In this document: positions 1 through 13,397 of the stretch, one piece after another
How the letters are laid out: each line of letters begins with the position of its first letter
Position numbering within the stretch: the stretch's first letter is position 1
IMG/VR virus record: IMGVR_UViG_2609459839_000007
DNA: 16,143 nt
Origin: a virus
Taxonomy: Duplodnaviria; Heunggongvirae; Uroviricota; Caudoviricetes
Strand: one strand, 5' to 3'
Position numbers and translations under genes: made by a program
The notes under the pieces: generated by a model
The model's database searches: none
Seen by the model: only the letters and a program-made list of their open reading frames with translations
Told to the model about the DNA's origin: nothing

Positions 1-1158
1 ATGCTCACCGTTAAGCAGATTGAAGCAGCAAAGCCGAAAGAAAAACCATACCGCCTACTCGATGGTAATGGCCTGTACCTTTATGTCCCTGTATCAGGGA
101 AAAAGGTATGGCAGCTTCGCTACAAGATTGACGGTAAGGAGAAAATCCTGACTGTCGGAAAATATCCGCTTATGACTTTGCAGGAAGCAAGGGATAAGGC
201 ATGGACTGCGAGGAAAGACATCTCGGTTGGCATCGATCCGGTAAAGGCGAAAAAGGCTTCGTCTAACAACAATTCATTTAGTGCGATTTACAAGGAATGG
301 TACGAGCACAAGAAGCAAGTCTGGTCAGTAGGCTATGCAACTGAACTTGCCAAAATGTTTGATGACGACATTTTACCCATCATCGGCGGTCTTGAGATTC
401 AGGATATTGAGCCGATGCAACTGCTGGAAGTAATCCGCAGATTTGAAGATCGCGGTGCAATGGAGCGAGCCAACAAAGCCCGCAGAAGATGCGGCGAGGT
501 TTTTCGTTACGCTATTGTCACCGGAAGGGCTAAATATAACCCGGCACCTGACCTTGCAGACGCCATGAAAGGATACCGCAAGAAGAACTTCCCGTTCCTT
601 CCAGCAGACCAGATGCCTGCATTCAACAAAGCACTGGCAACATTTTCAGGAAGTATCGTATCGCTCATTGCGACAAAAGTTTTACGTTATACAGCCCTAA
701 GAACGAAAGAGCTTCGTTCCATGCTATGGAAGAACGTCGATTTTGAAAACAGGATTATCACCATCGACGCCAGTGTGATGAAGGGACGCAAAATTCATGT
801 GGTCCCGATGTCAGACCAGGTGGTTGAACTTCTCACTACGCTAAGCTCAATCACCAAACCAGTCTCAGAGTTTGTTTTTGCCGGGCGCAACGATAAGAAG
901 AAGCCAATCTGCGAGAACGCGGTATTGCTTGTGATCAAACAAATCGGCTATGAAGGTCTGGAAAGCGGTCACGGATTCAGGCATGAATTCAGCACGATTA
1001 TGAACGAGCACGAATGGCCTGCTGACGCTATTGAAGTGCAGCTGGCACATGCCAACGGCGGATCTGTGCGCGGTATTTACAACCATGCTCAGTATCTCGA
1101 TAAGCGCAGAGAAATGATGCAGTGGTGGGCGGATTGGCTTGATGAAAAGGTGGAGTGA
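1..1158 (+). CDS. int: Tyrosine recombinase / integrase, P4-like (CP4-57 IntA-type) family
   Basis: 385-aa ORF with ATG at 1. N-terminal AAKPK..YRL.DG.GLYL motif and C-terminal HGFRHEF... / QLAHANGGSVRGIYNHAQYLDKRREMMQWWADWL region are typical of P4-type integrases. Upstream att site or tRNA would lie outside the window. Confidence 0.9.
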   Translation: MLTVKQIEAAKPKEKPYRLLDGNGLYLYVPVSGKKVWQLRYKIDGKEKILTVGKYPLMTLQEARDKAWTARKDISVGIDPVKAKKASSNNNSFSAIYKEWYEHKKQVWSVGYATELAKMFDDDILPIIGGLEIQDIEPMQLLEVIRRFEDRGAMERANKARRRCGEVFRYAIVTGRAKYNPAPDLADAMKGYRKKNFPFLPADQMPAFNKALATFSGSIVSLIATKVLRYTALRTKELRSMLWKNVDFENRIITIDASVMKGRKIHVVPMSDQVVELLTTLSSITKPVSEFVFAGRNDKKKPICENAVLLVIKQIGYEGLESGHGFRHEFSTIMNEHEWPADAIEVQLAHANGGSVRGIYNHAQYLDKRREMMQWWADWLDEKVE

Positions 1159-1492
1159 TCCACCTTAACCACTATCGGATAGTACAAAGCTTTGTGTGTC
1201 CCCACTATGACCTGCATAATCAATGAGAAGATAACAGTGATGACAAACGAGGCAGAAGTCTTCTTTTCTTTCATGACTTCTCCAGCATGCATACCTTTCT
1301 GCCATGACTGAAGTGAATGCCTGTTATGAACGAGGATTGGCCCAGACTTAGATAATGAGAGAGCACGGTGCTAATACCCAGACACGTCACCAGCCAGGCA
1401 ACAACAGATGGGGTCATAGCAACATTTTGGAAGGTATCTTCGTATCATTATGTGGTTAAATAGACATAATTTAACCCAATGGAATTTTCGCC

Positions 1493-2095
1493 ATGCTAAC
1501 CTTCTGGCACGAATATTCAGATCTCATCTCCGCATTTTTAGCAGCTCTTTTAGGTGGCTGTTTCACGATGATAGGAGTGACAACTCAGGTGAAACAGCAG
1601 GCAAAACAGCAGGCAACAGCGGCCAGAGAGAAGCGTATAACAACGCTATTGGGTGTCAGAGAGGAAATAGACTCACTGATTAAACTGTATCAGGCCAGAA
1701 TGGCAGAAGAAATCGAAAAATACGACCGGAACTCACCGTTCGATAACATTTTCCCCATTACTCAAAACTACTTCACGTTCTATGAAGCCAACTCGGCATC
1801 CCTACCTGAAGTTCATAGAGAAACACTCTCAAAAATTGTGGCTTTTTATACAAGCGCAAGAAGCCTAATTGATTCCTATCGCGGCAATAATGCGCTTATC
1901 GAACGGCTGGACTCCACGCAGGTTGCAAGTGACATTACTGGCAACAAAGAACATCTTGCACACCTGAAAAGATACACAATCCTAGCCACAGAGTACGGCC
2001 GCGGATTAATGATGATTCATGATGAGGTCATGCTCCGCTATAAACAGGTTATAGAAGCCATCGATGGTGAAATCTCACAGCTACAATGCAGTTAG
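1493..2095 (+). CDS. Hypothetical protein; hydrophobic N-terminal segment (possible TM helix) followed by a helical soluble domain; no recognised family
   Basis: 200-aa ORF; residues ~10-30 (LISAFLAALLGGCFTMIGV) are hydrophobic. No clear SD before the ATG at 1493. An alternative start at 1568 is preceded by AGGTGG (1552-1557) and would remove the hydrophobic segment. AT-rich relative to neighbours. Confidence 0.5.
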   Translation: MLTFWHEYSDLISAFLAALLGGCFTMIGVTTQVKQQAKQQATAAREKRITTLLGVREEIDSLIKLYQARMAEEIEKYDRNSPFDNIFPITQNYFTFYEANSASLPEVHRETLSKIVAFYTSARSLIDSYRGNNALIERLDSTQVASDITGNKEHLAHLKRYTILATEYGRGLMMIHDEVMLRYKQVIEAIDGEISQLQCS

Positions 2096-2576
2096 CACTA
2101 CAACCTGTCCGCATATTGAGCGACACGGTCGGATTTAGTGGGCTGAATGTCCGTTGTGAGCACTTAACGGACATTGCTAACCGCCTTCTGAGTGAATTAT
2201 CAGGGAGTAGGTCAAGATGGGACGTAGAGCACAAATCGTGGACAACATTTTTCGGGCACTTTTTAAAAATGACTAAACTGGTAAAATTCGATGTTATGAG
2301 CTGCGCTTTTAAGGGCCGTTAGTCGCATAGATTGTTAATCTATTCAGCGTTACTCATTCTCCAGATTACCAATTTAAATGGATGCACGGCCACCATGTTA
2401 AAATCTAACGCGGCCCTAAAGTCAGAGTGTAATGGGAAATGCAAGAAGTTATTTTCGTGCGCGTTCACTGGCGCACCTTGAGCAACCATTTCTCAATGCG
2501 TCTTAAAAGAGATGACTTGACTAAATTATGTATGCACTATCTGAATCTGATTTTTTTACTTAAAAGGGGGTTTTCA

Positions 2577-3476
2577 ATGACAGCAATAGCCTGCTGGCTA
2601 AACAGGGAAGAAGGGGAAAGTATCTGGGCCGTAAGCGACTCAAGAATCACCCAGCATGAAAGTGTAATGACAAATCACTGTCCTAAACTATTCTCGATTC
2701 CGGTATCAGTTATTCGCTCCAATGACATATACCGTCTATCTCCGGAAAAAATTATGGAGTTTGGTTTCGGCTTTGCAGGAGGAACAATGATCGGTATAAA
2801 TGTGAAGGAGTTACTTGCCGTATCATTATCTTCATTACATGAAGTTAATTATTATGATGTTCAGCAGCCGGAGTTGACTTATGATAGTTACCCGAGTCTT
2901 TATGAAATTGCAGTTTTAACAAAGGGAATCGCGGAAAAATTTATACTGGATATTGGCCAGTTTTTTCCCCGTTCTGTAGCAACGGAGATGATTATTTACG
3001 GATTCTGTTTCAGAACACAGGTACATAAAATCATTAAGATCTACAACACCCCATCAAACCCCACTAATCTTGTAATTGAGGACTGCCTTGACCTGACAAC
3101 AGGTACCCCGGTAGTCTTGGGAGACAGAAAGCAGCAGTTTCGGGAAGATATTGAGATGACGAGGGGGCGTTTTGAGAATGGCACGCTTAACTGGTGGCGG
3201 GCGTCATTTATCGCGTTAAACAACTGGATATCTCAGGACACCGTAAATACAATTGGTGGGCATATTCAGTTCTCAATGGCGAATAGAATTGGCACAAGAA
3301 ATCTTTTTATGTCCAGCTCAGAGTCTAACCCCCTTGATATGACCTATGCCGGAATCAGTAATACAAGTGCTCTAGGATTTACCATTGGACAACTTAGTAT
3401 TATGCCAATGTTAGGTATGACCCTTCCTGGGGAAAATGGCTGGCCATACGGCGATCAAATACTCCATAATGATTAG
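2577..3476 (+). CDS. Hypothetical protein with proteasome beta-subunit / HslV-like N-terminal nucleophile (Ntn) hydrolase signature and a C-terminal extension
   Basis: 299-aa ORF starting at the ATG at 2577, 6 nt after AAGGGGG (preferred over the in-frame upstream ATG at 2439, which lacks an SD). N-terminus MTAIACWLN...AVSDSRIT...K...GFGFAGGTMIG parallels E. coli HslV TTIVSVRRN...IAGDGQAT...K...AGFAGGTADAF (recalled from memory): Thr directly after Met, Asp ~20, Lys ~36, GFAGG motif. Strongly AT-rich. Confidence 0.6.
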   Translation: MTAIACWLNREEGESIWAVSDSRITQHESVMTNHCPKLFSIPVSVIRSNDIYRLSPEKIMEFGFGFAGGTMIGINVKELLAVSLSSLHEVNYYDVQQPELTYDSYPSLYEIAVLTKGIAEKFILDIGQFFPRSVATEMIIYGFCFRTQVHKIIKIYNTPSNPTNLVIEDCLDLTTGTPVVLGDRKQQFREDIEMTRGRFENGTLNWWRASFIALNNWISQDTVNTIGGHIQFSMANRIGTRNLFMSSSESNPLDMTYAGISNTSALGFTIGQLSIMPMLGMTLPGENGWPYGDQILHND

Positions 3477-3637
3477 AAGGTTAAGTATTTTATATTGGAT
3501 ATATGGCTATTGTGCTGCCATGATTCTAACAAATTATGCTTAAGAGGTGGTGCAACTCCTCTCATACAAAAAATACGTAAAATCAGTAACGGCTGGAAAT
3601 AATTCAATACATACACTCTCGAAAGTGCATCAGCCAA

Positions 3638-3676
3638 CCGCAGCACGTCTTGCATACGGCGTGTCTGCGGTTTTAT
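3638..3676 (+). terminator. Putative rho-independent terminator downstream of the 2577-3476 gene
   Basis: Imperfect stem CCGCAGCACG / GTGTCTGCGG (6 perfect bp plus a bulged extension) followed by TTTTAT; convergent with the invertase stop codon. Confidence 0.3.
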
Positions 3677-4227
3677 ATAATCCTGGCTGGAAACCTCTTA
3701 TACAAAGTCGATACACCAATATCATAGATGATCGCTACCTTCTGGCGAGGAATTCCTGCTGCAATTAATCGTCCGGCCTGCTCCCATTGTTCTGGTGTAA
3801 GTTTGGGGCGACGTCCACCAATTCGTCCCTGTGCGCGAGCAGCTTCCAGTCCAGCTTTTGTTCGTTCAACAATCAGTTCACGCTCCATTTCAGCCAGGGC
3901 ACCCATCACATGAAAGAAAAAGCGTCCCATTGGTGTGCTGGTATCAATTGAATCCGTCAGACTACGAAAGTTGATGCCTCGTTCGCGCAACTCCTCCACC
4001 AGCACGACAAGATGCCGCATACTACGCCCCAGCCGATCCAGCTTCCAGACAACCAGAGTGTCACCTGCCGATAATGTCCTGAGCAGTTTTTTCAGTCCCG
4101 GCCTTTCGGACTTTGTGCCGCTTATCTTGTCTTCAAAAATCAGCTCGCATCCTGCACAGTTCAGCGCATTACGTTGTAGATCTGTGTTCTGGTCATTTGT
4201 TGATACGCGTACATAGCCAATAAGCAT
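3673..4227 (-). CDS. pin: Serine-recombinase DNA invertase (Pin/Gin/Hin/Cin family)
   Basis: 184 aa from the ATG at 4227 (MLIGYVRVSTNDQNTDLQRNAL..., catalytic Ser in VRVSTNDQ), preceded by GGGGGA; C-terminal helix-turn-helix region. The track ORF extends 12 codons further upstream, but the family N-terminus is MLIGY. Confidence 0.85.
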   Translation of the reverse strand: MLIGYVRVSTNDQNTDLQRNALNCAGCELIFEDKISGTKSERPGLKKLLRTLSAGDTLVVWKLDRLGRSMRHLVVLVEELRERGINFRSLTDSIDTSTPMGRFFFHVMGALAEMERELIVERTKAGLEAARAQGRIGGRRPKLTPEQWEQAGRLIAAGIPRQKVAIIYDIGVSTLYKRFPARII

Positions 4228-4253
4228 GGTAGATCCCCCTGACAAAAGCAGGA

Positions 4254-4730
4254 ATGATGCCATTTGCTCGTTATTTCTGCATTTTCATAAACGTTGGTTT
4301 GGGAGAAGCGGCAAAACGGGATGTGGGGACAGGGGAAAATCAGATACCGGACATGGCCTCTTTTGCCAGTGGTGATGGATGGATGAAATTACCCAACGGG
4401 AAAATCCTGCAATATGGTCGTGGTGCGGTTACGCCGACATTATCGACGCAAACAATGAGAATTACATTCAGCATCCCTTTCCCCAAAAAAGCGGACTGCG
4501 CCATGCTTACTCATTCTGGTGATGGCGGTGCGCCTTTAGCTGGCGCAGTCAAAGAAGCGATCAGTGAGGTATTCAGCCGTCAGGCCTGGAGGAAAAACCC
4601 AGCCACAAGCCACGCCGCTGCATTCAGGTCTGCCGGAGACATCTGGTCGACAGAGCTTTGCGGCACTTTCGCCAGCCGCACAATGTATTTAGATACCACA
4701 TGTGCCAGAAGTCTGACGGACTCATCCTGA
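4254..4730 (+). pseudogene. Orphan tail-fibre C-terminal variable segment (remnant of an invertible tail-fibre cassette), promoterless
   Basis: ORF reads rightward across the candidate crossover site; contains GDGWMKLPNGKILQYGRG, resembling the conserved GW.KLP.G.I.QWG motif of variable tail-fibre C-termini. No N-terminal tail-fibre body and no downstream assembly gene. Confidence 0.3.
4282..4307. other. Candidate invertase crossover site (gix/hix/pix-like 26-bp imperfect dyad)
   Basis: TTTTCATAAACG TT GGTTTGGGAGAA resembles the recalled hix/gix pattern TTnTCnnAAACC nn GGTTTnnnGAnAA; lies ~55 bp upstream of the invertase start, the usual position of the invertase-proximal site. Confidence 0.3.
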
Positions 4731-4731
4731 T

Positions 4732-5412
4732 TCATCTGGTAGGGATACCGTCACTGGCAAGCTTGTGACGCCCGTACTTACTGGTAATGACGGATTTCAG
4801 TTTGCGCAGTACATACGCACTGGTATGCAGCGTCTCGCTGTCGAGGTAGCTGTTATCCGCATCCGGCATCTGTTCGTTTTCAGCGATACCGTAACCCGCC
4901 AGAGAGGACGGCTGCCCCAGTTCCAGCCCCGGACGCCACAGATAGTTACCCTCGGTGTCTTTCAGCAAACGGATGGCAAACAGGCTGTTGTTGTTCATCA
5001 TGAACTTCGCGCCGGTGCGGTGTGCCTTACGCAGCGTGTAAATCAGTTTGATAATGGCGTCTGCGGTCACCGCGGTCGCTTCGCCGGATACAATATGCTG
5101 AAGTTTGCCGAACGCCCGGACCTTGTCGGTTTCATCAGTGGATTCATACGCCAGGAACCCTTTCGGCTTCTTGGTGCCATCGCCGGTGGTAAAGGCAATT
5201 TCTTCCTGTTCGGCAAATTCGGTTGCCAGCTCGCTGTTGATCCATGCTTCCACGTTGAAAAAGGCATCATCCAGCATTTTCTGGGTAGCCTGCGGGTTGC
5301 CGTAGATTTCCCCCATGAAAGGTTCAATCAGGCCCAGTTTTGAGGTGGCAGTCTGGGAGCGCGCGTCAGTCTCGCCAACCGGCACTACCTGCTGAGGTGC
5401 CATAGGCGACAC
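4732..5412 (-). pseudogene. Internal fragment of an HK97-family major capsid protein gene
   Basis: Motifs EIAFTTGDGTKKPKGFL, AHRTGAKFMMNNNSLFAIRLLKDTEGNYLWRP and GYGIAENEQMPD match HK97-fold capsid conserved blocks. The ~160 N-terminal residues and the normal C-terminal block are missing; the ORF opens with GTG only by track convention. Confidence 0.6.
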
Positions 5413-5551
5413 CCGTTGTTAACTTATCCATGGATTTCATAACCCCACCTCGCAGACAAAGCGGGTGTAAATTGAGGGAATACTACGAAACGTAACAGAC
5501 TCGGAGTCAGTGAATAACTCAGGTATTGGGTTATCAGCTAATATCGAGACT

Positions 5552-5585
5552 CAAAAAATGGAAAAACCCGCTCGACGGCGGGTTT
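5552..5585 (-). terminator. Putative rho-independent terminator (minus strand) in the AT-rich region upstream of the porin gene
   Basis: Stem CCCGC / GCGGG with A/T extensions (5564-5585), followed on the minus strand by TTTCCATTTTTT. Confidence 0.35.
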
Positions 5586-6012
5586 AAGCTGTGTGACGAA
5601 GTAACCACTCTTAACAGCATAACCAATTTTTTACGTACGTAAACCACTAAATGATATTTGCGAGAATGCTACCGAGTATTGAAAACACCACTACAAATAC
5701 ATAAGCAAATCCCAACAAATAACCAACAAATAATTTCCAGTGTTATTTTTAGCCGGTTTAAATTGAACCTTCAAATTATAGAGCACCTATAAATAACAGC
5801 CGTTAATATAAATTGGCTAATAGATTTATTTTTATTCAGCAAAGAGCCATGAATAGGATTCGATAGAAAAAAGTTCAGATAAAAATAGAGATCTACTTCA
5901 CAAATCAAACGAGAAACCAAAACTTACATCTTGAAATAATCACATTGATTAGATGAATATTTATCGCGCAGTGACATCATTTTTTAATAATAGTTCAAAA
6001 AAAGGGCTCACG

Positions 6013-7110
6013 ATGAAAAAATTAACAGTGGCAATTTCTGCTGTAGCTGCATCAGTACTGATGGCGATGTCTGCTCAGGCAGCTGAAATTTATAATAAAG
6101 ACAGTAACAAGCTGGATCTGTACGGGAAAGTTAATGCTAAGCACTACTTCTCCTCTAATGATGCAGATGATGGTGATACTACTTATGCCCGTCTTGGCTT
6201 CAAAGGTGAAACCCAAATCAACGATCAACTGACTGGTTTCGGTCAGTGGGAATATGAATTCAAAGGCAACCGCGCTGAATCTCAAGGTTCCTCCAAAGAT
6301 AAAACCCGTCTTGCCTTCGCTGGCCTGAAATTCGGTGACTACGGCTCCATCGATTACGGCCGTAACTACGGTGTAGCATACGACATCGGTGCGTGGACTG
6401 ACGTCCTGCCAGAATTCGGTGGTGACACTTGGACTCAAACCGACGTGTTCATGACTCAACGTGCAACTGGTGTTGCAACCTATCGTAACAACGACTTCTT
6501 TGGTCTGGTTGATGGTCTGAACTTTGCTGCTCAGTACCAAGGCAAAAACGATCGTAGCGATTTCGATAACTACACTGAAGGTAACGGTGATGGCTTCGGT
6601 TTCTCTGCTACCTATGAATACGAAGGATTCGGTATCGGTGCAACTTATGCGAAATCTGATCGTACCGACACTCAAGTTAATGCAGGGAAAGTTCTTCCTG
6701 AAGTATTTGCTTCCGGTAAAAATGCAGAAGTTTGGGCCGCAGGTCTGAAATATGACGCTAACAACATTTACCTGGCCACTACCTATTCTGAAACCCAGAA
6801 TATGACTGTATTTGCTGATCACTTCGTTGCTAATAAAGCCCAAAACTTCGAAGCTGTTGCACAATATCAGTTCGATTTCGGTCTGCGTCCGTCCGTTGCT
6901 TACCTGCAATCTAAAGGTAAGGATCTTGGAGTATGGGGCGATCAGGACTTAGTCAAATATGTTGATGTAGGTGCAACCTATTACTTCAACAAAAATATGT
7001 CTACTTTCGTTGATTACAAAATCAACCTGCTTGACAAAAATGACTTCACTAAAGCACTCGGTGTAAGCACTGATGACATCGTTGCTGTAGGTCTGGTTTA
7101 CCAGTTCTAA
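6013..7110 (+). CDS. nmpC: Outer-membrane general porin, NmpC/OmpD-type (OmpC family), intact
   Basis: 365 aa from the ATG at 6013 with signal peptide [30 protein letters not shown], and C-terminal ...GLVYQF beta-barrel terminus. Matches my recollection of E. coli DLP12 NmpC. The track ORF begins 20 codons earlier, but the signal peptide defines the start. Confidence 0.9.
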
Positions 7111-7272
7111 TCTAATTACGAAAAAGATATGTTGCGGGAGGCGTTGCCTCCCCAACATATAAGTGGCTCCCTCAAGCCACTTCCTTTAGAAGCACAACCT
7201 TGCTTCTAACTATATAAACCTTCTGTTATATATTACCCTTTATTTTTGGGGGCGTCTCAACGCCCCATTTTT
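7110..7272 (+). ncRNA. Candidate structured RNA downstream of nmpC (IpeX-like locus): four consecutive hairpins ending in a terminator
   Basis: Hairpins at 7127-7160 (~15-bp stem ATATGTTGCGGGAGGC / GCCTCCCCAACATAT), 7162-7181 (AGTGGCT / AGCCACT), 7188-7207 (AGAAGCA / TGCTTCT) and 7249-7266 (GGGGCG / CGCCCC) plus T-run. Equating this with IpeX is from memory of its map position only. Confidence 0.3.
7249..7272 (+). terminator. Rho-independent terminator
   Basis: GGGGCG-TCTCAA-CGCCCC followed by ATTTTT. Confidence 0.5.
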
Positions 7273-7299
7273 AATAACTTTTAGTAAATAATTGGCATA

Positions 7300-7683
7300 T
7301 TAATTAGAGTTATTAACAACGATATCCATCTCTAACCGGATATCTAATGCCATTAACATCCCTTCAATTATGCCCTCAGCCTTCTGTAACCTTTTCCCGA
7401 TATAACCATCAGAGCAGCAATGCTTACCTGCCAGTGACATGAATGTCATACCGACTACATAATAATCTACTAATAAATCGTGCAAATCGCTGTTGTTCTT
7501 TTTCAGACGGGCCATGCACCCGCAAATAATCATCGCGTCATCGTCACAACATTGCGGGCGAGATTTTACTTTTGAAGTAATTAATCCCTTAAAACCGGCG
7601 GCAATGGACGACCAGGTCACATCTTCATGATTATTAGCCGCCCACGCTCCCCAACGCTCAAGAACCATCTGAATATCACGCAT
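7300..7683 (-). CDS. quuD: Late-gene antiterminator Q (phage 82 / DLP12 QuuD-type)
   Basis: 127 aa from the ATG at 7683 ([22 protein letters not shown]...), preceded by GGAG; matches recalled QuuD sequence. Cys-rich zinc-binding region present. Confidence 0.8.
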
Positions 7684-7768
7684 CAACTTACTCCACAAAA
7701 ATCAGACCAGAACGCCAATTACAAGCAAAAATCAACAAAACAGTATTAGTTGATTGTTATCTCTGACT

Positions 7769-7909
7769 TCATACTCCTGCTCCTGTCAGGGTTTTGGCGT
7801 AATTCTTCAGTATTCGGTAATCGGTCAAAACAGAACCGGGGAAACGATATAAGCGCAGATGCCCCCAGCGGTGGCGAAGAAGTTCTGCCATATAAAACTC
7901 AAACATCAT
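7769..7909 (-). CDS. ylcG: YlcG-family small prophage protein (46 aa)
   Basis: Below the ORF-track cutoff; hand-translated as [46 protein letters not shown]. Its start codon overlaps the rusA stop. Confidence 0.6.
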
Positions 7910-8268
7910 TCATTCCCCATTTCGGTGATGGTCAGTTCCAGCCTCCCACCTTTGGTAACAGGCATCTTCACAACGCGGTAATCAACGACCAGCTCATCAT
8001 CCAGCCAGAAACCTGCTTTAGTGAGTGCGTCAAAAGCGGCTTTTTGCAGATTATCCAGGTCACGGCGACGGCGATCCGGCATGTGGCACTCAATGCGGAT
8101 TTTCACAGGCATAGCCAGACCGATATCCAGCATTGAGCCTTTAATGATTCGGGCGACGTTATCGCGGTATGCCTGCCCTTCTGCGCTGATGTGCGTGCGC
8201 CCTCGATTATGGCGGTAGTAGCGGTTATTGCTCGGCGGCCAGGGTAGTGTGATGTGGTAAGTATTCAC
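7906..8268 (-). CDS. rusA: Holliday-junction resolvase RusA
   Basis: 120 aa, [26 protein letters not shown]...[22 protein letters not shown]..., matching recalled E. coli RusA. Start codon is GTG, overlapping the ybcO stop. Confidence 0.9.
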
Positions 8269-8555
8269 GCCTTAATTACCCCCTCTTTCAGCCAGATAAC
8301 CTGCGTTCTCGCCATACCTTCCAGCGCGCATTCTTTTGCATATCCAGCGTCAACAAAATGCGTGCGGCGGTCGATTTCGTCGTGGCAGGCAGAACATGCA
8401 ATGGTGGCAATCAGGTCTGGCGGTTTCGTACCGGTGCCGCACAATCCAGTCAGCCGGATATGTGCCAGTACAGACGTTTCAGGGTTGCCATTACATACGC
8501 CAGGGATTCTTACCTGGCATTCCCGACCACGCGCTGCTTTTCTCAAATCAGCCAT
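8265..8555 (-). CDS. ybcO: YbcO-family (DUF1364) Cys-rich prophage protein, putative nuclease
   Basis: 96 aa from the ATG at 8555 ([23 protein letters not shown]...), preceded by AGGAGG; matches recalled DLP12 YbcO. Confidence 0.8.
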
Positions 8556-8718
8556 GACTCCTCCTTGCTGCCAGTCGCAACCATTTTTTATCAACCAAGC
8601 TGGCGGTATATCCGAGCAGTGTTGGTATTTCGGATGGCTTCAGCTCAGGTTTACGCTTACGACGATTTGGTACTCTGTAGATGTATCCGTTCATGACACG
8701 AATAAGCGGTGTAGCCAT
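8548..8718 (-). CDS. ninE: NinE-family protein
   Basis: 56 aa ([56 protein letters not shown]); basic KRKP/WLR pattern as in lambda NinE. Start overlaps the ybcN stop. Confidence 0.75.
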   Translation of the reverse strand: MATPLIRVMNGYIYRVPNRRKRKPELKPSEIPTLLGYTASLVDKKWLRLAARRSHG

Positions 8719-9173
8719 TACGCCTCCTGCTTGTCGCGCAGCAGCTGAAACTCGCAGCTCTGTGGAATAGTCAGGTGGCAACCAATATTCACCGCCCAGG
8801 CTTCAACCTTACACAGGAAGATATACATCTCTCCGGTATCAAGATCGGAGGTATGGCGTAACGACTGGATAGTGGTGATCTCACCGGTTACGACATCAAC
8901 CAGGTCTTTGGTTTCATAACCGAGATATGTGTGTTTGAGAGCATCTTTTACCCAAGCTGGAGTGGCGAACGTTTTACCCCTGCTGATGAGGTATTCACTG
9001 ATTTCGCTGTACCACATGTGGCTGAGTGCATTCTGGGAAAGACTGCGTTTCTCACGCCACGGTTTAAGCACCATGCGAAAGCATTTGCCTTCCTCCAGAT
9101 AAGGCTGGATCTGCTGGCCGATAGCGGTGAAGTTACCACGATGCAATTTGATGCCGTCTTGTGGGAGGTTCAC
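8718..9173 (-). CDS. ybcN: YbcN-family prophage protein (DLP12 YbcN-like; reported as a DNA base-flipping protein)
   Basis: 151 aa, GTG start at 9173 preceded by GGAGGTGA; sequence [55 protein letters not shown]... matches recalled DLP12 YbcN. Confidence 0.75.
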
Positions 9174-9206
9174 GCTTCACCTCCGCAGAGGTCAAACGCT
9201 GGATGC

Positions 9207-9291
9207 AAAAAATCGCAGGTGCATCTCTGCATCTGTGAAGGGAGAAGAGAGTTTGGATTGTATGTGCGCATAAACGTCCCCGTTTAGCGCA
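9207..9291. repeat. Copy A of an ~85-bp direct repeat with an embedded 11-bp-stem hairpin
   Basis: Aligns with 11141-11225 at 80/85 identical positions in direct orientation; contains TGCGCATAAACG-TCCC-CGTTTAGCGCA. Lies immediately 5' (minus-strand sense) of ybcN. Confidence 0.85.
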
Positions 9292-9367
9292 GAAGTCACC
9301 GGAGTTGTTCAAGCTCCAATGGCATGATTATGGCTGGTTGATTATTGGAAATCAAATGTGCTGAAAA

Positions 9368-9877
9368 TTAGTCTGCCAAGTCTTCCTCAGTCGCAACTGG
9401 GTAATTCCAAATATCAAAAAAAGCTATAGCCTCCTGCCATTTGCTCCATAAGTTATCAAGTACTTGTGTAGGTTCCGTACTTTTAAAAACAGAATCAGCC
9501 GCATCACCGTTATGAACTTCCTCGTACAGTTCCATTATTAGCAGATTAACAAAGTACTGTTTCAACATTAATGCCTGATTACCTTCTTTCTGCTGGCTAT
9601 CCTGCTTGATGAGCTCCATCGCCCGTACTAGGCACCTGATGATATCCGCTGCATCATTAACGCTCCATTCAGATCCGCGCTTATCTTTAGCTGATGAATT
9701 GGCTCTCTCAGCGCAAGCCTTTAAAGACTCATAAAGGTAAACTCTATTTTGTAGCTGCAGCGCTTTTTTTGACGTGCACCAACTTGCAAGCGCCGACCCC
9801 GCTGCGGCTAATGTGCCAAACGCAGAAATGCCTGCTGCTATTGCACTTAAGTCGGCACTGTCAAAGTTCCACATCAT
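9368..9877 (-). CDS. Hypothetical single-pass membrane protein (moron in the nin region)
   Basis: 169 aa; ATG at 9877 preceded by AAGGTG. N-terminal hydrophobic stretch LSAIAAGISAFGTLAAAGSALASW, then an acidic helical domain. AT-rich, with its own AT-rich upstream region. Confidence 0.6.
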   Translation of the reverse strand: MMWNFDSADLSAIAAGISAFGTLAAAGSALASWCTSKKALQLQNRVYLYESLKACAERANSSAKDKRGSEWSVNDAADIIRCLVRAMELIKQDSQQKEGNQALMLKQYFVNLLIMELYEEVHNGDAADSVFKSTEPTQVLDNLWSKWQEAIAFFDIWNYPVATEEDLAD

Positions 9878-10052
9878 CGTTACACCTTATATAAACACCC
9901 CTCAGTAATATCCAATAAGGTATGTGAACAATCAATATAATTTATATCCGTATCGGCACATAGCGATTTTAATGCTACTGATAATGGTATCTTTTAGATT
10001 ATATCGTCCAGTTCCAGTACCCGTATTTTATGAAATGGACTCGCACATTACC

Positions 10053-10093
10053 AAAAAAAATGCCAGCACTTCCGTCATCGCAGAATGCTGGCA
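10053..10093 (-). terminator. Rho-independent terminator after the Bro-N gene
   Basis: 8-bp stem TGCCAGCA / TGCTGGCA (10061-10093) followed on the minus strand by a T8 run (10053-10060). Confidence 0.5.
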
Positions 10094-10112
10094 GTATTTC
10101 TAACTAGTGACT

Positions 10113-10721
10113 TTATTGCAACAGATTCTGACGGAAATATGGTAACACACGACTCCACTTATCATCCTGCCACGGTTGGAATTTTACATGCGCCGTTTCT
10201 CTGGCAAGGATTTCTCGCGCCCTGTTGAGTATCCGAGGATATTCTTGTTCGATTGAAGTGAATCTACCTGCTTCGCGATGCTCTGCGACCTGAAGAAGGG
10301 GCGTAACGTTCTGGCAGGCGGTTAACATCGTATCACTTGCTCGCCATAACCAGGCGAGTGTGCAAAGTTCGTTATCAGTGAATTGTTTTGTGATTGGGGA
10401 TTGTTGAACTTCTCGATCGAGAATATCCAGAACCCAGCGGCGGAATTCTTTGGCCACAGGAGTACGAGCAAACATGGCGATCAAATGGGCTCCGCGAAGG
10501 CTAAATACTCGAGACTCCTGCATTCCACGAGGGGTGGTCACTTTGACCACCCTTGTCATCATATCTGTGAATTCATCTGAGTGCCGAGAGTAAATGCGCT
10601 GAACTGCTTTATCGTCCGCATATTCCAGTGCTAAACCAACTTCAGTGGCAGTAAGCCAAATTCTGTTATTGTGGCAAATCGGGGTAAACGTCGTTTTGTG
10701 GAATGCTAATTGAGTAGTCAT
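10113..10721 (-). CDS. Bro-N domain protein (putative phage antirepressor-like regulator)
   Basis: 202 aa; ATG at 10721 preceded by GAGGTGA. N-terminal region (NNRIWLTATEVGLALEY...RVFSLRGAHLIAMFARTPVAKEFRRWVLD) fits the Bro-N pattern. Confidence 0.65.
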   Translation of the reverse strand: MTTQLAFHKTTFTPICHNNRIWLTATEVGLALEYADDKAVQRIYSRHSDEFTDMMTRVVKVTTPRGMQESRVFSLRGAHLIAMFARTPVAKEFRRWVLDILDREVQQSPITKQFTDNELCTLAWLWRASDTMLTACQNVTPLLQVAEHREAGRFTSIEQEYPRILNRAREILARETAHVKFQPWQDDKWSRVLPYFRQNLLQ

Positions 10722-10876
10722 AGTATCACCTCATCAGGTTAACCATCACCACCAACGACGCCAATCGACTGGTGGTGAACTGTGTAAGGTTGGCGTAACC
10801 GGCTACTCAAACCCGGCGCTTCCGAAGAAGCCCTCACACAGCCCACCATAATTTGGGCATAGCCGTGCTTAGCGCA

Positions 10877-10898
10877 CAAAAAAACCGCTTAACGCGGT
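10877..10898 (-). terminator. Putative rho-independent terminator (minus strand)
   Basis: ACCGC-TTAAC-GCGGT hairpin (10884-10898) followed on the minus strand by a T7 run (10877-10883); lies ~85 nt downstream of the small ORF at 10985-11074. Confidence 0.4.
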
Positions 10899-10984
10899 AT
10901 GCGTTGAGTAGTATCCCGGGACGCCAATCCCGTGTGCCGATTTTGCGGCAACGCACAGAATATAGCGCCGGATAAATCATGTCG

Positions 10985-11074
10985 TCAACCCCAGTAAATG
11001 GACACCATGATGATCACAGCCATAGCTGCTACAACAGTTACAACTACCTCAGGCCAAAACATAACGATTTCCAT
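10985..11074 (-). CDS. Small hydrophobic peptide (29 aa), candidate membrane peptide
   Basis: Below the ORF-track cutoff; hand-translated as MEIVMFWPEVVVTVVAAMAVIIMVSIYWG. ATG at 11074 preceded by AAAGGTGA; downstream terminator at 10877-10898; copy B of the 85-bp repeat lies just upstream. Confidence 0.3.
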   Translation of the reverse strand: MEIVMFWPEVVVTVVAAMAVIIMVSIYWG

Positions 11075-11140
11075 ATCACCTTTAGCCGCCAGACGAATAG
11101 AGACTCCCAATTCTGGCTGTCGAAGTAAAACACCGAATGT

Positions 11141-11225
11141 AAAAAATCGTAGGTGCATTTCTGCATCTGTGAATGGAGATGAGAGTTTGGATTGTGTGTG
11201 CGCATAAACGTCCCCGTTTAGCGCA
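11141..11225. repeat. Copy B of the ~85-bp direct repeat with embedded hairpin
   Basis: 80/85 identical to 9207-9291; same hairpin TGCGCATAAACG-TCCC-CGTTTAGCGCA. Confidence 0.85.
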
Positions 11226-11363
11226 ACCCCACCACCGGGTGTTCAGGCCGACAGTAACTATATTATTCCCTACTGATTTTTGAAAATCAAAGGTCTTTAT
11301 ACGTCACACGAGAGCAAATATTTCCGAAGAAGAAACCTTTCGCCTTGAAAGGATAAAGAGTTC

Positions 11364-11410
11364 ATTTCATAAATTGAAATATTCAATAAGAATATTTCAA
11401 AAAATGAAAT
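11364..11410. promoter_or_regulatory. Cluster of three overlapping dyad symmetries (candidate operator) upstream of the 11534 gene
   Basis: ATTTCA-N5-TGAAAT (11364-11380), GAAATATTC-N5-GAATATTTC (11376-11398), ATTTCA-N5-TGAAAT (11394-11410), in an AT-rich region 125-170 bp upstream of the start codon. Confidence 0.35.
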
Positions 11411-11533
11411 TATTTACTAGCGAGTCTATCTAACTGATAATTATGAAGATTGTAAGCGGTAGCAATCACCCGCATACACATTGAACAGGATTTAATACAA
11501 AACGTCTTAAATTGTCCGTAAGGAATAGCACGA

Positions 11534-13036
11534 ATGACTCAAACTCCTCTATTACTTGCAATCATATTTTTATTGGTTGTTCTTGTTCTTTATATAGCTG
11601 CAATCAAACGCATCAAAAAATTACAATTAGAATTAAGTGATAGCAATCAAAAAAATGAAGAATACAAATCTCGCTTTGCAGATTATTTTAATGTAGAAGA
11701 AGAATGTAAGAAGCTTATTGAGAAAACAGAGCAAGAATGCTCCATAATAAAAGAAGAATCCCTAAAAGTAAAAGAAAATGCCAATAATGAACTAACAAAC
11801 ACCATTGAAAAAATGGATGGTATCAATAAACAAATCCAAGAGCTAAGAAGAACTTATAAAGAGAAGAAAGAAATATATGATAAACTAGTAAGGCAAATTT
11901 CTATTTATTCAGAAGATGTTGAGCTAGCCGAACTAGGATTTTACGAACCTCATTTTAATTTTGAAGATTCAGAGCAATTTAAAAACAAAATAAAATCCAT
12001 CAGGGATGAACAGAAATTAATGCTGCGGGATAAAACCCACTCTGGCGCAGTATATTGTACAACCCAATGGACTGTTGAAGGCTCTCGAGCAGAGGGTAAA
12101 AAAATGACAGACAGAAATATCAGGCTAACTACTAGAGCATTTAATAATGAATGTGATGCTGCAATTAGCAATTGCACGTGGAAAAACATCACTAAAATGG
12201 AAGAACGCATCACAAAGGCATTTGAGGCCATAAATAAACTAAACGAGCAAAATCACATATATATAAACACTAAATACCTCAATAAAAAACTTGAGGAATT
12301 GTGGCTTACCCATGAATATCGTGAGCAAAAACAGAAAGAAAAAGAAGAACAGGCAGAAATAAGGGCACAAATGAGAGAGGAGGAGCGTGCACAACGAGAA
12401 ATAGAAAAGGCCATGCAAGACGCAGAGGCAGAAGAGCGCCGTTATAAAAAAGCAATTGAAGCTGCAAGAAAGGAAATGGAAAAAGTTACTGGTGACATGA
12501 AGCAGCGCCTCGAAAATCGCATTGCCGAACTAGAACAGAGTTTGTCGCAGGCTGAATCAAAGCATCAAAGAGCATTATCCATGGCACAACAAACCAAACA
12601 AGGTCATGTTTATATTATTTCGAACATAGGTTCTTTTGGGGAGAATGTTTATAAAATAGGCATGACACGACGTCTTGATCCGCAAGACCGTGTAAATGAG
12701 CTCGGTGATGCATCTGTTCCTTTTATTTTTGATGTACATGCCATGATTTATTCGGAGGACGCTCCATCATTAGAAAAAAAACTACATGATGTCTTCGATA
12801 AAAAGAGAGTCAATCTTGTAAATCGTAGAAAAGAGTTTTTCTATATTACTCTGGATGAGATCAAAGAAGCTGTTAAAAAACACTCTGATTCAGAAATTGA
12901 ATTTATTGAGACAGCAGTCGCAAAAGACTTTAATGAGTCATTGGCTATTCGTAATCATGAAAATAAAAAAAGTGACAACAGCAACTCATCAATTATACCT
13001 GAGCGAAAAACCCCAGAGTTTGCAGATGCAATTTAA
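11534..13036 (+). CDS. Membrane-anchored coiled-coil protein with C-terminal GIY-YIG-type nuclease domain (T5orf172-like; architecture resembles DUF4041-T5orf172 proteins)
   Basis: 500 aa; ATG at 11534 preceded by AAGGAA. N-terminal TM helix (LLLAIIFLLVVLVLYIAAI), two E/K/R-rich coiled-coil stretches, and C-terminal GHVYIISNIGSFGENVYKIGMTRR...PFIFDVHAMIY...KEFFYITLDEI (GxVY...YKIG, Arg, Glu). Very AT-rich. Confidence 0.8.
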   Translation: MTQTPLLLAIIFLLVVLVLYIAAIKRIKKLQLELSDSNQKNEEYKSRFADYFNVEEECKKLIEKTEQECSIIKEESLKVKENANNELTNTIEKMDGINKQIQELRRTYKEKKEIYDKLVRQISIYSEDVELAELGFYEPHFNFEDSEQFKNKIKSIRDEQKLMLRDKTHSGAVYCTTQWTVEGSRAEGKKMTDRNIRLTTRAFNNECDAAISNCTWKNITKMEERITKAFEAINKLNEQNHIYINTKYLNKKLEELWLTHEYREQKQKEKEEQAEIRAQMREEERAQREIEKAMQDAEAEERRYKKAIEAARKEMEKVTGDMKQRLENRIAELEQSLSQAESKHQRALSMAQQTKQGHVYIISNIGSFGENVYKIGMTRRLDPQDRVNELGDASVPFIFDVHAMIYSEDAPSLEKKLHDVFDKKRVNLVNRRKEFFYITLDEIKEAVKKHSDSEIEFIETAVAKDFNESLAIRNHENKKSDNSNSSIIPERKTPEFADAI

Positions 13037-13274
13037 TTAATTTGTAGTAGCAATAAAGCAGGCATCGTTGAGAATATTTTGTCAGCGATGCTTACTTCTC
13101 TAACAAAAACGGTGATTACCAACGAACTAACGGACTTCAGGTAATCATAAGACAAATGGAACGACTCTCCGGTGATTAGATCCCTGCAATAACAGTAATT
13201 TTCTACTAACTGAAAAATCTTTAACTGCCGCTCCTATTTCTAAGCTGACTGCTAGATTACATGGTGTGTTACCG

Positions 13275-13397
13275 ATGAAAACCGTCACCCGTGCATTTGA
13301 TGACGATGTTGAGTTTCAGGAGCGCATGGCAGAACACATCCGGTACATGGTTGAAACCATTGCTCACCATCAGGTTGATATTGATTCAGAGGTATAA
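13275..13397 (+). pseudogene. gam: Truncated gam (lambda Gam C-terminal ~35 residues only)
   Basis: Translation ...[36 protein letters not shown] matches the recalled C-terminus of lambda Gam; similarity is lost upstream of about 13285. Confidence 0.6.

Follow-up and report, generated by a model that had tools for sequence, protein, structure and literature searches.

A putative RNA-gated antirepressor module and a putative membrane-protein unit share the ninB-proximal cargo slot of a degraded lambdoid prophage

Introduction

In bacteriophage P1, expression of the antirepressor Ant is under the control of C4 RNA and Icd (PMC8201110). In the Gifsy-1 prophage, read-through of the IsrK terminator yields a translationally silent mRNA of ~910 nucleotides (nt), which the short IsrK RNA opens in trans; translation of anrP depends on IsrK, orf45 is translationally coupled to anrP, and AnrP brings about the expression of antQ and the induction of the prophage (Hershko-Shalev et al. 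2016, PMC4825925). Here, we analyze a stretch of 16,143 nt of viral (Caudoviricetes) DNA, record IMGVR_UViG_2609459839_000007, which in its full length is referred to below as the window. At issue are two minus-strand genes, one (10113 to 10721) encoding a protein of 202 amino acids (aa) with Bro-N and P22AR_C domains, preceded by IsrK- and C4-type RNA genes, and the other (9368 to 9877) encoding p169, an orphan protein with a predicted membrane anchor. A preliminary description had correctly delimited both open reading frames (ORFs) without stating their strand and had presented them as a single finding.

Other phage systems invite comparison with one or the other gene. The Ant protein of P22 is controlled by Mnt/Arc and sar RNA, and the P22 antirepressor region is adjoined by sieA. 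In lambda, ren is the last nonessential early-right gene before ninB, and its product counters Rex. P22 SieA, HK97 gp15, and Tuc2009 Sie2009 are small (~160 to 170 aa), lone inner-membrane proteins of prophages and in size and prophage origin resemble p169. SieA has three transmembrane (TM) segments and a cytoplasmic FnRYPnEAnnFNK motif (PMC10461980).

Results

Two predicted transcription units in one cargo slot

Both ORFs lie in the variable slot upstream of ylcH-ybcN (ninB). We propose, with a probability of about one half, that they belong to two independent, co-oriented transcription units. Unit A (10988 to 10053, minus strand) would be an RNA-gated antirepressor module composed of a promoter, IsrK, C4, a short upstream ORF, the Bro-N+P22AR_C gene, and a terminator. 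Unit B (9935 to 9368, minus strand) would be a moron-like membrane-protein unit composed of a promoter-like element and p169. Treating the two genes as one finding is at odds with the locus, in which a strong terminator separates them and in which their linkage is seen only among near-identical E. coli copies.

IsrK and C4 RNA genes precede the Bro-N gene

Unit A contains RNA genes for IsrK and C4 and exact complementarities between C4 and its putative targets, all on the minus strand. The unit begins with a promoter-like site, TTGACG-18-TATATT (10959 to 10988), which has 10 of 12 matches and was the best in the promoter scan; its −10 element ends 8 to 9 nt ahead of the start of the IsrK model. 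The IsrK-type Hfq-binding small RNA, with a1 and b1 sites, was found at 10878 to 10950 (Rfam RF01394; 58.7 bits; gathering score, 50), and the terminator scan identified a terminator-like hairpin at 10898 to 10884 which, with its U-run, extends to 10875. The C4-type antisense RNA at 10768 to 10853 matched RF01695 over its full length with 74.8 bits (gathering score, 45) and is located 46 nt upstream of the Bro-N ATG on the same strand. Overlapping C4 is a short putative ORF (10739 to 10879), of 46 codons if read from TTG 10879 and 36 codons if read from ATG 10848, whose stop lies 18 nt ahead of the Bro-N ATG; in position, this ORF corresponds to orf45 of Gifsy-1 and icd of P1. The preliminary inventory of the interval held the two ORFs and overlooked these RNA genes (10768 to 10965), as it did the neighboring PD-Lambda-1 gene and the loss of the DNA between ren and gam, both of which are described below.

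The Shine-Dalgarno (SD) sequence and start codon of the Bro-N gene are flanked by two target sites. Site a2 (CUACUCAA, 10710 to 10717) occupies Bro-N codons 2 to 4, at +4 from the ATG, and is complementary to the C4 loop UUGAGUAG. Site b2 (AUUGGCGUC, 10757 to 10765) lies in the Bro-N leader and is complementary to the C4 segment ACGCCAA, the complement UUGGCGU being positioned at −43 from the ATG. The 8-mer CUACUCAA is present at three places in the window (chance expectation, 0.42), namely, at a2, in IsrK (10904 to 10911), and as its complement in C4 (10803 to 10810), and the 9-mer AUUGGCGUC is present at two (chance expectation, 0.14), b2 and IsrK (10920 to 10928). O157 typing phage 9 (locus L014) retains the constant pair ACGCCAA/UUGGCGU, and its variable C4 loop, CCUUUUAG, matches CUAAAAGG, which this phage has both in IsrK and at the SD sequence. 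Judged from these sequences, the change of the specificity loop in this phage is a compensatory covariation.

A Bro-N/P22AR_C protein is the predicted payload of Unit A

The product of the gene at 10113 to 10721 (minus strand) matched two Pfam domains, Bro-N (PF02498; residues 17 to 100, E = 4.4e-10, 40.5 bits, cutoff 25.6), which the preliminary description had named, and P22AR_C (PF10548; residues 110 to 180, E = 1.7e-17, 63.7 bits, cutoff 22.4), which it had not. The top PHROG matches were anti-repressor Ant families. The Bro-N/P22AR_C family comprises at least 4182 protein clusters at E ≤ 1e-10, and the 120 clusters listed all carry both domains and all come from Enterobacteriaceae. Also borne out was the statement that the gene has a terminator of its own: an intrinsic terminator at 10053 to 10093 (minus strand) consists of a 13-bp stem (UGCCAGCAUUCUG / CGG.AAGUGCUGGCA) followed by 8 U, and the 86-nt stretch that holds it (10030 to 10115) has a minimum free energy of −23.2 kcal/mol, with a z-score of −2.3. 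The idea of an antirepressor-like regulator, raised in the same description, gains strength from the P22AR_C domain and from the IsrK/C4 cassette directly upstream. The designation "Rha protein" in the record of temperate phage PhiR26_1 (PV340555) is unsupported, no match to Phage_pRha (PF09669) having been found in Pfam.

A 116-nt piece of the P22AR_C-coding region (10309 to 10424) is ~83% identical to unannotated DNA in the phages Lambda_4C10, 4A7, D2, 1W, 3W, and Perceval, which suggests that these phages hold remnants of an antirepressor gene.

Unit A resembles the Gifsy-1 and P1/P7 modules

Taken by its sequence, Unit A is a module of the P1/P7 immI and Gifsy-1 isrK-orf45-anrP type and thus an already known kind of system. 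The models established for Gifsy-1 and P1 supply repression, activation, the direction of regulation, antirepressor activity, and the nature of the protein target, and each of these would apply here as follows. The sigma-70 promoter at 10988 to 10959 would give rise to a short IsrK RNA ending at its own terminator, and read-through transcripts would carry the C4-type RNA, the short ORF, and the Bro-N/P22AR_C gene. Pairing of the C4 segments UUGAGUAG and ACGCCAA with a2 and b2 would keep the Bro-N gene untranslated, and the a1/b1 sites of IsrK would compete for or remodel this pairing and turn translation on, as in Gifsy-1. The Bro-N/P22AR_C protein would then act on a prophage repressor, as an antirepressor or early-gene derepressor.

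Gifsy-1 shares with Unit A the order of promoter, IsrK with its own terminator, C4-like RNA over a short ORF, antirepressor-type gene, and terminator. Its ~910-nt transcript compares with ~900 nt in Unit A, counted from 10950 to the terminator at 10093 to 10053. In Gifsy-1, the region ahead of AnrP likewise gave Rfam matches to c4-a1b1, IsrK, and C4, and H0107 of VT2-Sakai is preceded by the same RNA architecture. The proteins behind these RNAs differ: AnrP and H0107 are ORF6N proteins, the O157 typing-phage protein is Bro-N alone, and the window protein is Bro-N plus P22AR_C. The N-terminal residues MTTQ are common to the window protein and AnrP because the a2 site lies in those codons. Since nonhomologous payload proteins follow the same RNAs, the RNA cassette would constitute a portable gate for interchangeable antirepressor-type genes. 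The modules also differ in location, that of Gifsy-1 following Q and that of the window preceding ninB, and Rfam returned no IsrJ match downstream of the Bro-N gene or elsewhere in the window, whereas Gifsy-1 has one.

P1/P7 immI (c4-icd-ant; Citron and Schuster 1990, as cited in PMC8201110) is similar in several respects. Its C4 RNA is processed from the transcript of its own target, and the window C4 is likewise placed; one pair of its target sites (a1/b1) is located upstream and the other (a2/b2) where translation of the downstream ORF starts, as in Unit A; and its specificity loop differs between phages, as the loop of the window system covaries with its targets, the gated gene being an antirepressor. 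Unlike the P1/P7 plasmid prophages, Unit A is lambdoid and has an unrelated short ORF in place of an Icd homolog. Its a2 site lies inside the antirepressor ORF itself, unlike that of P1/P7, and the window protein presumably belongs to a family other than that of P1 Ant. The C-terminal domain PF10548 is held in common with P22 Ant; the N-terminal domain is Bro-N here and P22_AR_N there, and control by C4 and IsrK RNAs sets Unit A apart from P22 Ant.

For the Bro-N gene, these comparisons turn an unannotated spacer into what reads as a complete RNA switch. The IsrK/C4 cassette, with the first codons of its target included, would be a portable control element placed before unrelated ORF6N, Bro-N, and Bro-N+P22AR_C proteins in E. 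coli, Stx phages, and Salmonella prophages. Such portable gating is of interest for prophage induction outside the SOS response and for cross-talk among prophages that share a host.

p169 is a constrained gene of a rare family

The p169 coding sequence (9368 to 9877, minus strand) specifies 169 aa from ATG 9877 and probably 168 aa from ATG 9874, the second ATG being the likely start because close homologs lack the first. Relative to homologs 69 to 74% identical in protein, dN/dS was 0.09 to 0.16, with dS above 1.5; by this measure, p169 is a real gene under purifying selection. The SD sequence ascribed to p169 in the preliminary description is present (AAGGTG, 9888 to 9883). The AT richness ascribed to it there is a property of the 235-nt upstream spacer (36.6% GC) and not of the gene, whose 44.5% GC is close to the 45.2% of the window.

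Homology searches led from p169 to PHROG 1779 only (E = 1.7e-102; function unknown), and neighborhood searches led to early lambdoid regions. The family is rare: clustering at 90% identity yields 14 clusters from 5.8 billion proteins, and clustering at 50% identity yields 34 representatives from 1.84 billion. Nearly all full-length members are 150 to 180 aa long. Scanned singly against Pfam and PADLOC, p169 and 25 family members gave no consistent match and only scattered single-member noise; in PADLOC-DB 2.0, the weak matches of the 25 members occurred in one member each, the best having an E value of 0.0018. Literature searches found nothing on PhiR26_1, the WP accessions, or phrog_1779.

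Conserved features of the family are an Ala/Gly/Ser-rich hydrophobic stretch (SAIxxxAAAxAAFxS), an A-x-RAN motif, Trp71, Trp147, and, in most members, a C-terminal acidic tail, (T)DEDLxD (TxEDLxD). An acidic helical C-terminal part had been predicted; residues 41 to 169 indeed have a pI of 4.57, and the AlphaFold model is all-helical, with a helical bundle at residues 40 to 158 (pLDDT, ~70 to 93). The hydrophobic stretch is conserved among 25 members, with a median Kyte-Doolittle (KD) value of 1.86. Among 24 single-domain members, 21 have no Lys or Arg before the stretch and 3 have one; Asp or Glu usually precedes it, and 2 to 6 Lys or Arg residues follow. According to the positive-inside rule, this asymmetry indicates an N-out/C-in anchor with a cytoplasmic domain. 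One relative (P0041) has extra TM segments fused in front.

Two other assignments were rejected. A HEPN toxin was suggested by weak fold matches only, and the Rx4-6H motif is absent. A lipoprotein or signal-peptide protein is incompatible with the sequence, in which ASWC is no lipobox, Cys33 is unconserved, and there is no basic n-region.

A promoter-like element embedded in an inverted repeat precedes p169

Upstream of p169 lies the element TTGATT-17-GATATT (9907 to 9935, minus strand), with −35 TTGATT at 9935 to 9930 and −10 GATATT at 9912 to 9907. In eight loci that encode proteins 50 to 100% identical and whose other flanks are unrelated, TTG and GATATTA are invariant at 17-nt spacing, and the coding regions of these loci are saturated at synonymous sites. 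We infer from this conservation that the element is the p169 promoter. It showed no resemblance to cI operators, when compared with the operators of an intact relative, and contained no LexA box.

An inverted repeat followed by a U-rich run surrounds the −10 element (9893 to 9920, minus strand), which is placed in the loop. Its arms match imperfectly in the window (ACCTTA...TGAGGGGT); in several relatives they form a perfect, covarying repeat of 7 to 9 bp, as ATACCCT/AGGGTAT in loci L008 and L059 and as ATACCCTGA/TCAGGGTAT in locus L055. This pattern would fit a terminator or insulator against upstream read-through with the promoter embedded in it; transcripts from the embedded promoter would be without the 5′ arm of the hairpin.

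A second conserved promoter-like site, TTGATT-17-CATAAT (9327 to 9355, minus strand), lies directly past the p169 stop. Within 9171 to 9370, it is followed by two hairpins, a terminator-like site, and then the GTG start of ybcN. The ~190-nt spacer between p169 and ybcN is conserved even where p169 is only 63% identical, and it had no match in Rfam. It could serve as a regulatory leader or as the equivalent of tR2, or encode a small RNA.

p169 occurs with and without the Bro-N gene

The full p169 gene was found in 180 of 5426 complete E. coli genomes (~3%), including the O104:H4 outbreak lineage, and the ylcH-ybcN junction was found in 2918 of the same 5426. The same p169 and Bro-N pair occurs in 112 of the 180 genomes. 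A tblastn search of phages with p169 returned PhiR26_1 and PhiR5_1 only, and a locus search with a narrow alignment returned only one GTDB species representative. The p169 of PhiR26_1 is identical to that of the window, and the deposited record of this phage names E. coli K-12 MG1655 as the host, so that the exclusion and counterdefense hypotheses discussed below are directly testable.

E. coli-type loci with p169 copies of ≥95% identity always have Bro-N/P22AR_C, or a remnant of it, as the upstream gene; in O104:H4, this upstream gene is a pseudogene with an internal stop, and p169 is intact. Relatives 46 to 79% identical have DUF551, Ea22-like, or hypothetical genes as upstream neighbors, together with O/P or O/DnaB replication modules, and in several backbones the upstream spacers of p169 relatives are short (79 to 107 nt). 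Because of the O104:H4 pseudogene and these unrelated neighbors, we attribute the linkage of p169 and Bro-N to recent shared ancestry. At both kinds of loci, p169 is the last gene ahead of ylcH/NinB or DUF1367 and lies on the early-operon strand. By this comparison, p169 is not functionally tied to the Bro-N gene and is an optional gene that, in several different lambdoid backbones, keeps its position as the final gene ahead of ninB. The preliminary view that neither gene is part of the nin operon therefore holds for the Bro-N gene and has to be modified for p169, the conserved optional last gene before ninB/DUF1367.

Distant relatives (18 to 29% identity) fall into four groups of loci, all in lambdoid prophage regions. 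Two groups are early-right, between replication and nin genes and co-directional with the early operon, with opposite-strand cargo nearby (pyocin S or an AAA_15 ATPase). One group (L068) lies in the early-left (pL) operon just past N, in a remnant with the order cI-N-x-gene-Exc-Int. The fourth group lies in a degraded remnant of short length, where its neighbors are a lysis-type gene and an immunity-type gene of the colicin/pyocin kind. p169 represents a small, rare, strongly constrained family that was found only in lambdoid early regions and has no known relative. In one locus with a distant homolog (L071), a LexA-box-like sequence of the form CTG-N10-CAG (ATACTGTTTGTATGCACAGTTTA) occurs at ~7490 to 7520, just past the homolog and before the next small ORF, near an opposite-strand pyocin S gene.

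Discussion

Evidence that weighs against the two-unit reading

Several of our observations count against two independent units of the kinds proposed. For Unit A, the c4-a1b1 model (RF03163), which overlaps IsrK at 10913 to 10965 (minus strand), scored 39.6 bits, under its gathering score of 46.7. Whole-RNA duplex energies of C4 with its targets were not clearly better than those of shuffled sequence; duplex energies being uninformative, the evidence for pairing consists of the exact short complementarities and the covariation. The 202-aa protein shares with AnrP only its first four N-terminal residues and is not homologous to it beyond them, and P22_AR_N is absent, the Pfam search at E ≤ 0.1 having returned Bro-N and P22AR_C alone; given these two results, it is domain names and genomic context that make the protein an antirepressor candidate. 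The window also lacks a cognate repressor. For Unit B, the promoter is assigned by sequence alone, and its 8 of 12 matches fall below the promoter-scan threshold. No match to p169 was found in Pfam, NCBIfam, PADLOC (0 hits), PDB sequences, or a fold search. The single N-terminal TM helix claimed for p169 in the preliminary description, which is upheld by its conservation and charge asymmetry across 25 members, is borderline in p169 itself, with a 19-residue KD maximum of 1.59 and a summed Hessa-scale value of +2.7.

Exclusion or defense as a tentative function of p169

We tentatively suggest, at odds well below even, that p169 is a prophage-expressed exclusion or defense-type factor that would interfere with an incoming phage at the inner membrane. 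The preliminary description had already placed p169 among superinfection-exclusion or abortive-infection candidates, and the evidence on this idea points both ways. The Ala/Gly/Ser-rich N-terminal helix would anchor the protein in the inner membrane with ~10 residues outside, and the acidic helical bundle (~135 residues) and the acidic tail TxEDLxD would face the cytoplasm. [quoted passage not shown] In favor of the suggestion are the conserved membrane anchor, the conserved promoter without a cI operator, purifying selection, and the location in a cargo slot next to PD-Lambda-1. A dedicated promoter is expected of a gene that is active under pR repression and, together with the retention of p169 in degraded prophages, favors a lysogen-expressed function. 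Two points tell against this suggestion: p169 has no similarity to a known Sie, Abi, or defense protein (PADLOC, PHROG, and tblastn), and every p169 relative is co-directional with the early lytic operon, with the lysogen-type genes that share these slots (PD-Lambda-1, pyocin S, and the AAA_15 ATPase) on the opposite strand. This pattern is just as compatible with an early lytic function, which the strict co-orientation favors.

A function of the SieA type was considered and rejected. p169 has a single hydrophobic segment and neither the FnRYPnEAnnFNK motif nor any sequence similarity to SieA, and one anchor with a large cytoplasmic helical domain stands in contrast to three TM segments.

[quoted passage not shown] If true, either activity would introduce a new class of mechanism to the ren-ninB slot.

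A possible early lytic role for p169

Equally doubtful, in our estimate, is the alternative that p169 is an early lytic accessory, expressed mainly from N-antiterminated pR (or pL), that would act at the membrane to the benefit of the phage itself, for example, by countering a membrane-bound Abi effector or by modulating FtsH, cell division, or lysis timing. It would account for the co-orientation of all relatives examined with the early operon, most of them between the replication genes and nin and one in the pL operon past N, for the placement of lysogen-type cargo on the other strand in the same slots, and for the upstream spacers of 79 to 107 nt in several backbones. The place of p169 as the last gene before ninB is also that of ren in the lambda gene order. 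Lambda Ren is a soluble protein of ~96 to 100 aa with no similarity to p169, and in intact relatives ren lies at the far side of the same slot and coexists with p169. The promoter argues in the other direction, as N-modified polymerase passes terminators anyway and a shielded sigma-70 promoter would be needed only when pR is off; no cI operator is found at this promoter. Moreover, p169 is intact and 100% identical in the window prophage, which has no pR, and a homolog has been kept in the L068 remnant. Between the two readings, our preference for a lysogen-expressed factor is slight.

Unlikely alternatives to the antirepressor and two-unit readings

For the Bro-N/P22AR_C protein, we regard it as unlikely that the product regulates through DNA binding or inhibits growth in the manner of Roi/Rha/KilA proteins, or is itself an anti-phage effector. 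The Bro-N fold binds DNA and is also present in KilA-N-type proteins, as is generally known of the family, PV340555 applies the Rha label to this protein, VT2-Sakai has roi in the same region, and repressor-binding assays are known for no member of this subfamily. The protein nevertheless has no Phage_pRha or KilAC/ANT domain in Pfam, its C-terminal domain is that of the P22 antirepressor, its top PHROG matches are anti-repressor families, and its gene stands behind the RNA switch that gates antirepressors in P1 and Gifsy-1.

A two-component system formed by p169 and the Bro-N protein, pairing a membrane effector with a DNA-binding regulator or sensor as in a toxin-antitoxin or Abi pair, is very improbable and largely refuted by the comparative data: a Bro-N/P22AR_C gene or remnant does lie upstream wherever p169 is at least 95% identical, with the pair in 112 of 180 genomes, but the genes are divided by a strong intrinsic terminator and a separate promoter, relatives of 46 to 79% identity have unrelated upstream neighbors, the O104:H4 Bro-N gene is interrupted by a stop with p169 intact, the Bro-N/P22AR_C family has >4000 clusters against ~34 for p169, and IsrK/C4-antirepressor modules are found elsewhere without p169.

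The prophage backbone and neighboring genes

Positions 9300 to 10800 of the window are 100% identical to E. coli chromosomal prophages and to phage PhiR26_1. In the matching records, the early-right operon corresponds to the minus strand of the window, and the gene order is cro, cII, O, P, ren, the variable slot, ylcH, ybcN (NinB-family), ninE, ybcO, rusA, ylcG, and Q. By these matches, the window prophage is an E. coli prophage of the lambda/DLP12 type in a degraded state. That this slot holds other accessory genes in DLP12-type prophages, as had been stated, is confirmed by the cargo emrE-ylcJ-ybcK-ybcL-ybcM in K-12 DLP12 and by PD-Lambda-1 here. The latter gene (11534 to 13036, plus strand; 500 aa; DUF4041 and T5orf172/MUG113; PADLOC E = 3.7e-198) lies in the same slot on the strand opposite to the two units and is a validated, experimentally selected anti-lambda defense gene.

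Colinearity with the intact relatives (E. coli 118UI and phage PhiR26_1) is confined to 5379 to 13288. At the junction at 13278 to 13288, the 3′ end of ren joins the middle of gam, and ~6.07 kb (ren, P, O, cII, cro, cI, and kil) is gone; this junction was found in 0 of 5426 complete E. coli genomes. On this basis, the window prophage is defective. As the 6.07-kb deletion has removed pR and the cognate repressor, both genes would be expressible here only from their own promoters.

The left part of the window (1 to 5412) is a mosaic that abuts the lambdoid segment. It contains an intS-type integrase gene (1 to 1158, plus strand), two hypothetical ORFs (1493 to 2095, plus strand, with a weak ZorB/MotB-like PADLOC match at E = 0.002, and 2439 to 3476, plus strand, with no PADLOC match), a pinE-like (pin-type) invertase gene (3673 to 4263, minus strand), a tail-fiber fragment (4254 to 4730, plus strand), and a truncated capsid gene (4732 to 5412, minus strand). 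Copies of both hypothetical ORFs, 99% identical, are present in several genomes and on a plasmid.

A direct repeat, small ORFs, and IsrJ

A 104-nt direct repeat flanks the two units. Copy 1 (9188 to 9291), on the ninB side, is the ylcH/ninB leader with a terminator-like hairpin (9231 to 9214); copy 2 (11122 to 11225), on the far side, is 89% identical. The copies are spaced 1934 nt apart and enclose a 1.9-kb cassette of a small ORF, IsrK, C4, the Bro-N gene, and p169. The ninB leader copy is conserved in p169 loci of other backbones, and the second copy occurs only with the PD-Lambda-1/orf57 arrangement. Because the repeat is a conserved ninB leader present on both sides, this suggests that the cassette moves by recombination within the leader.

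The small ORF (10985 to 11158, minus strand), which belongs to PHROG 4612, a family of unknown function, immediately precedes the IsrK promoter. If translated from an internal ATG at 11074, which has a good SD sequence, it would yield a very hydrophobic 29-aa peptide, MEIVMFWPEVVVTVVAAMAVIIMVSIYWG. A second ORF (11044 to 11205, minus strand) overlaps it in another frame and starts within the repeat copy.

Rfam IsrJ matches were found directly downstream of Q in three other lambdoid loci (L008, 9567 to 9643; L011, 8784 to 8854; and L059, 8371 to 8443). In Gifsy-1 (L064), IsrJ (33406 to 33480) instead follows anrP (STM2616) and is separated from Q by the isrK/C4-anrP module. These positions suggest that IsrJ is a short leader transcript of the late promoter.

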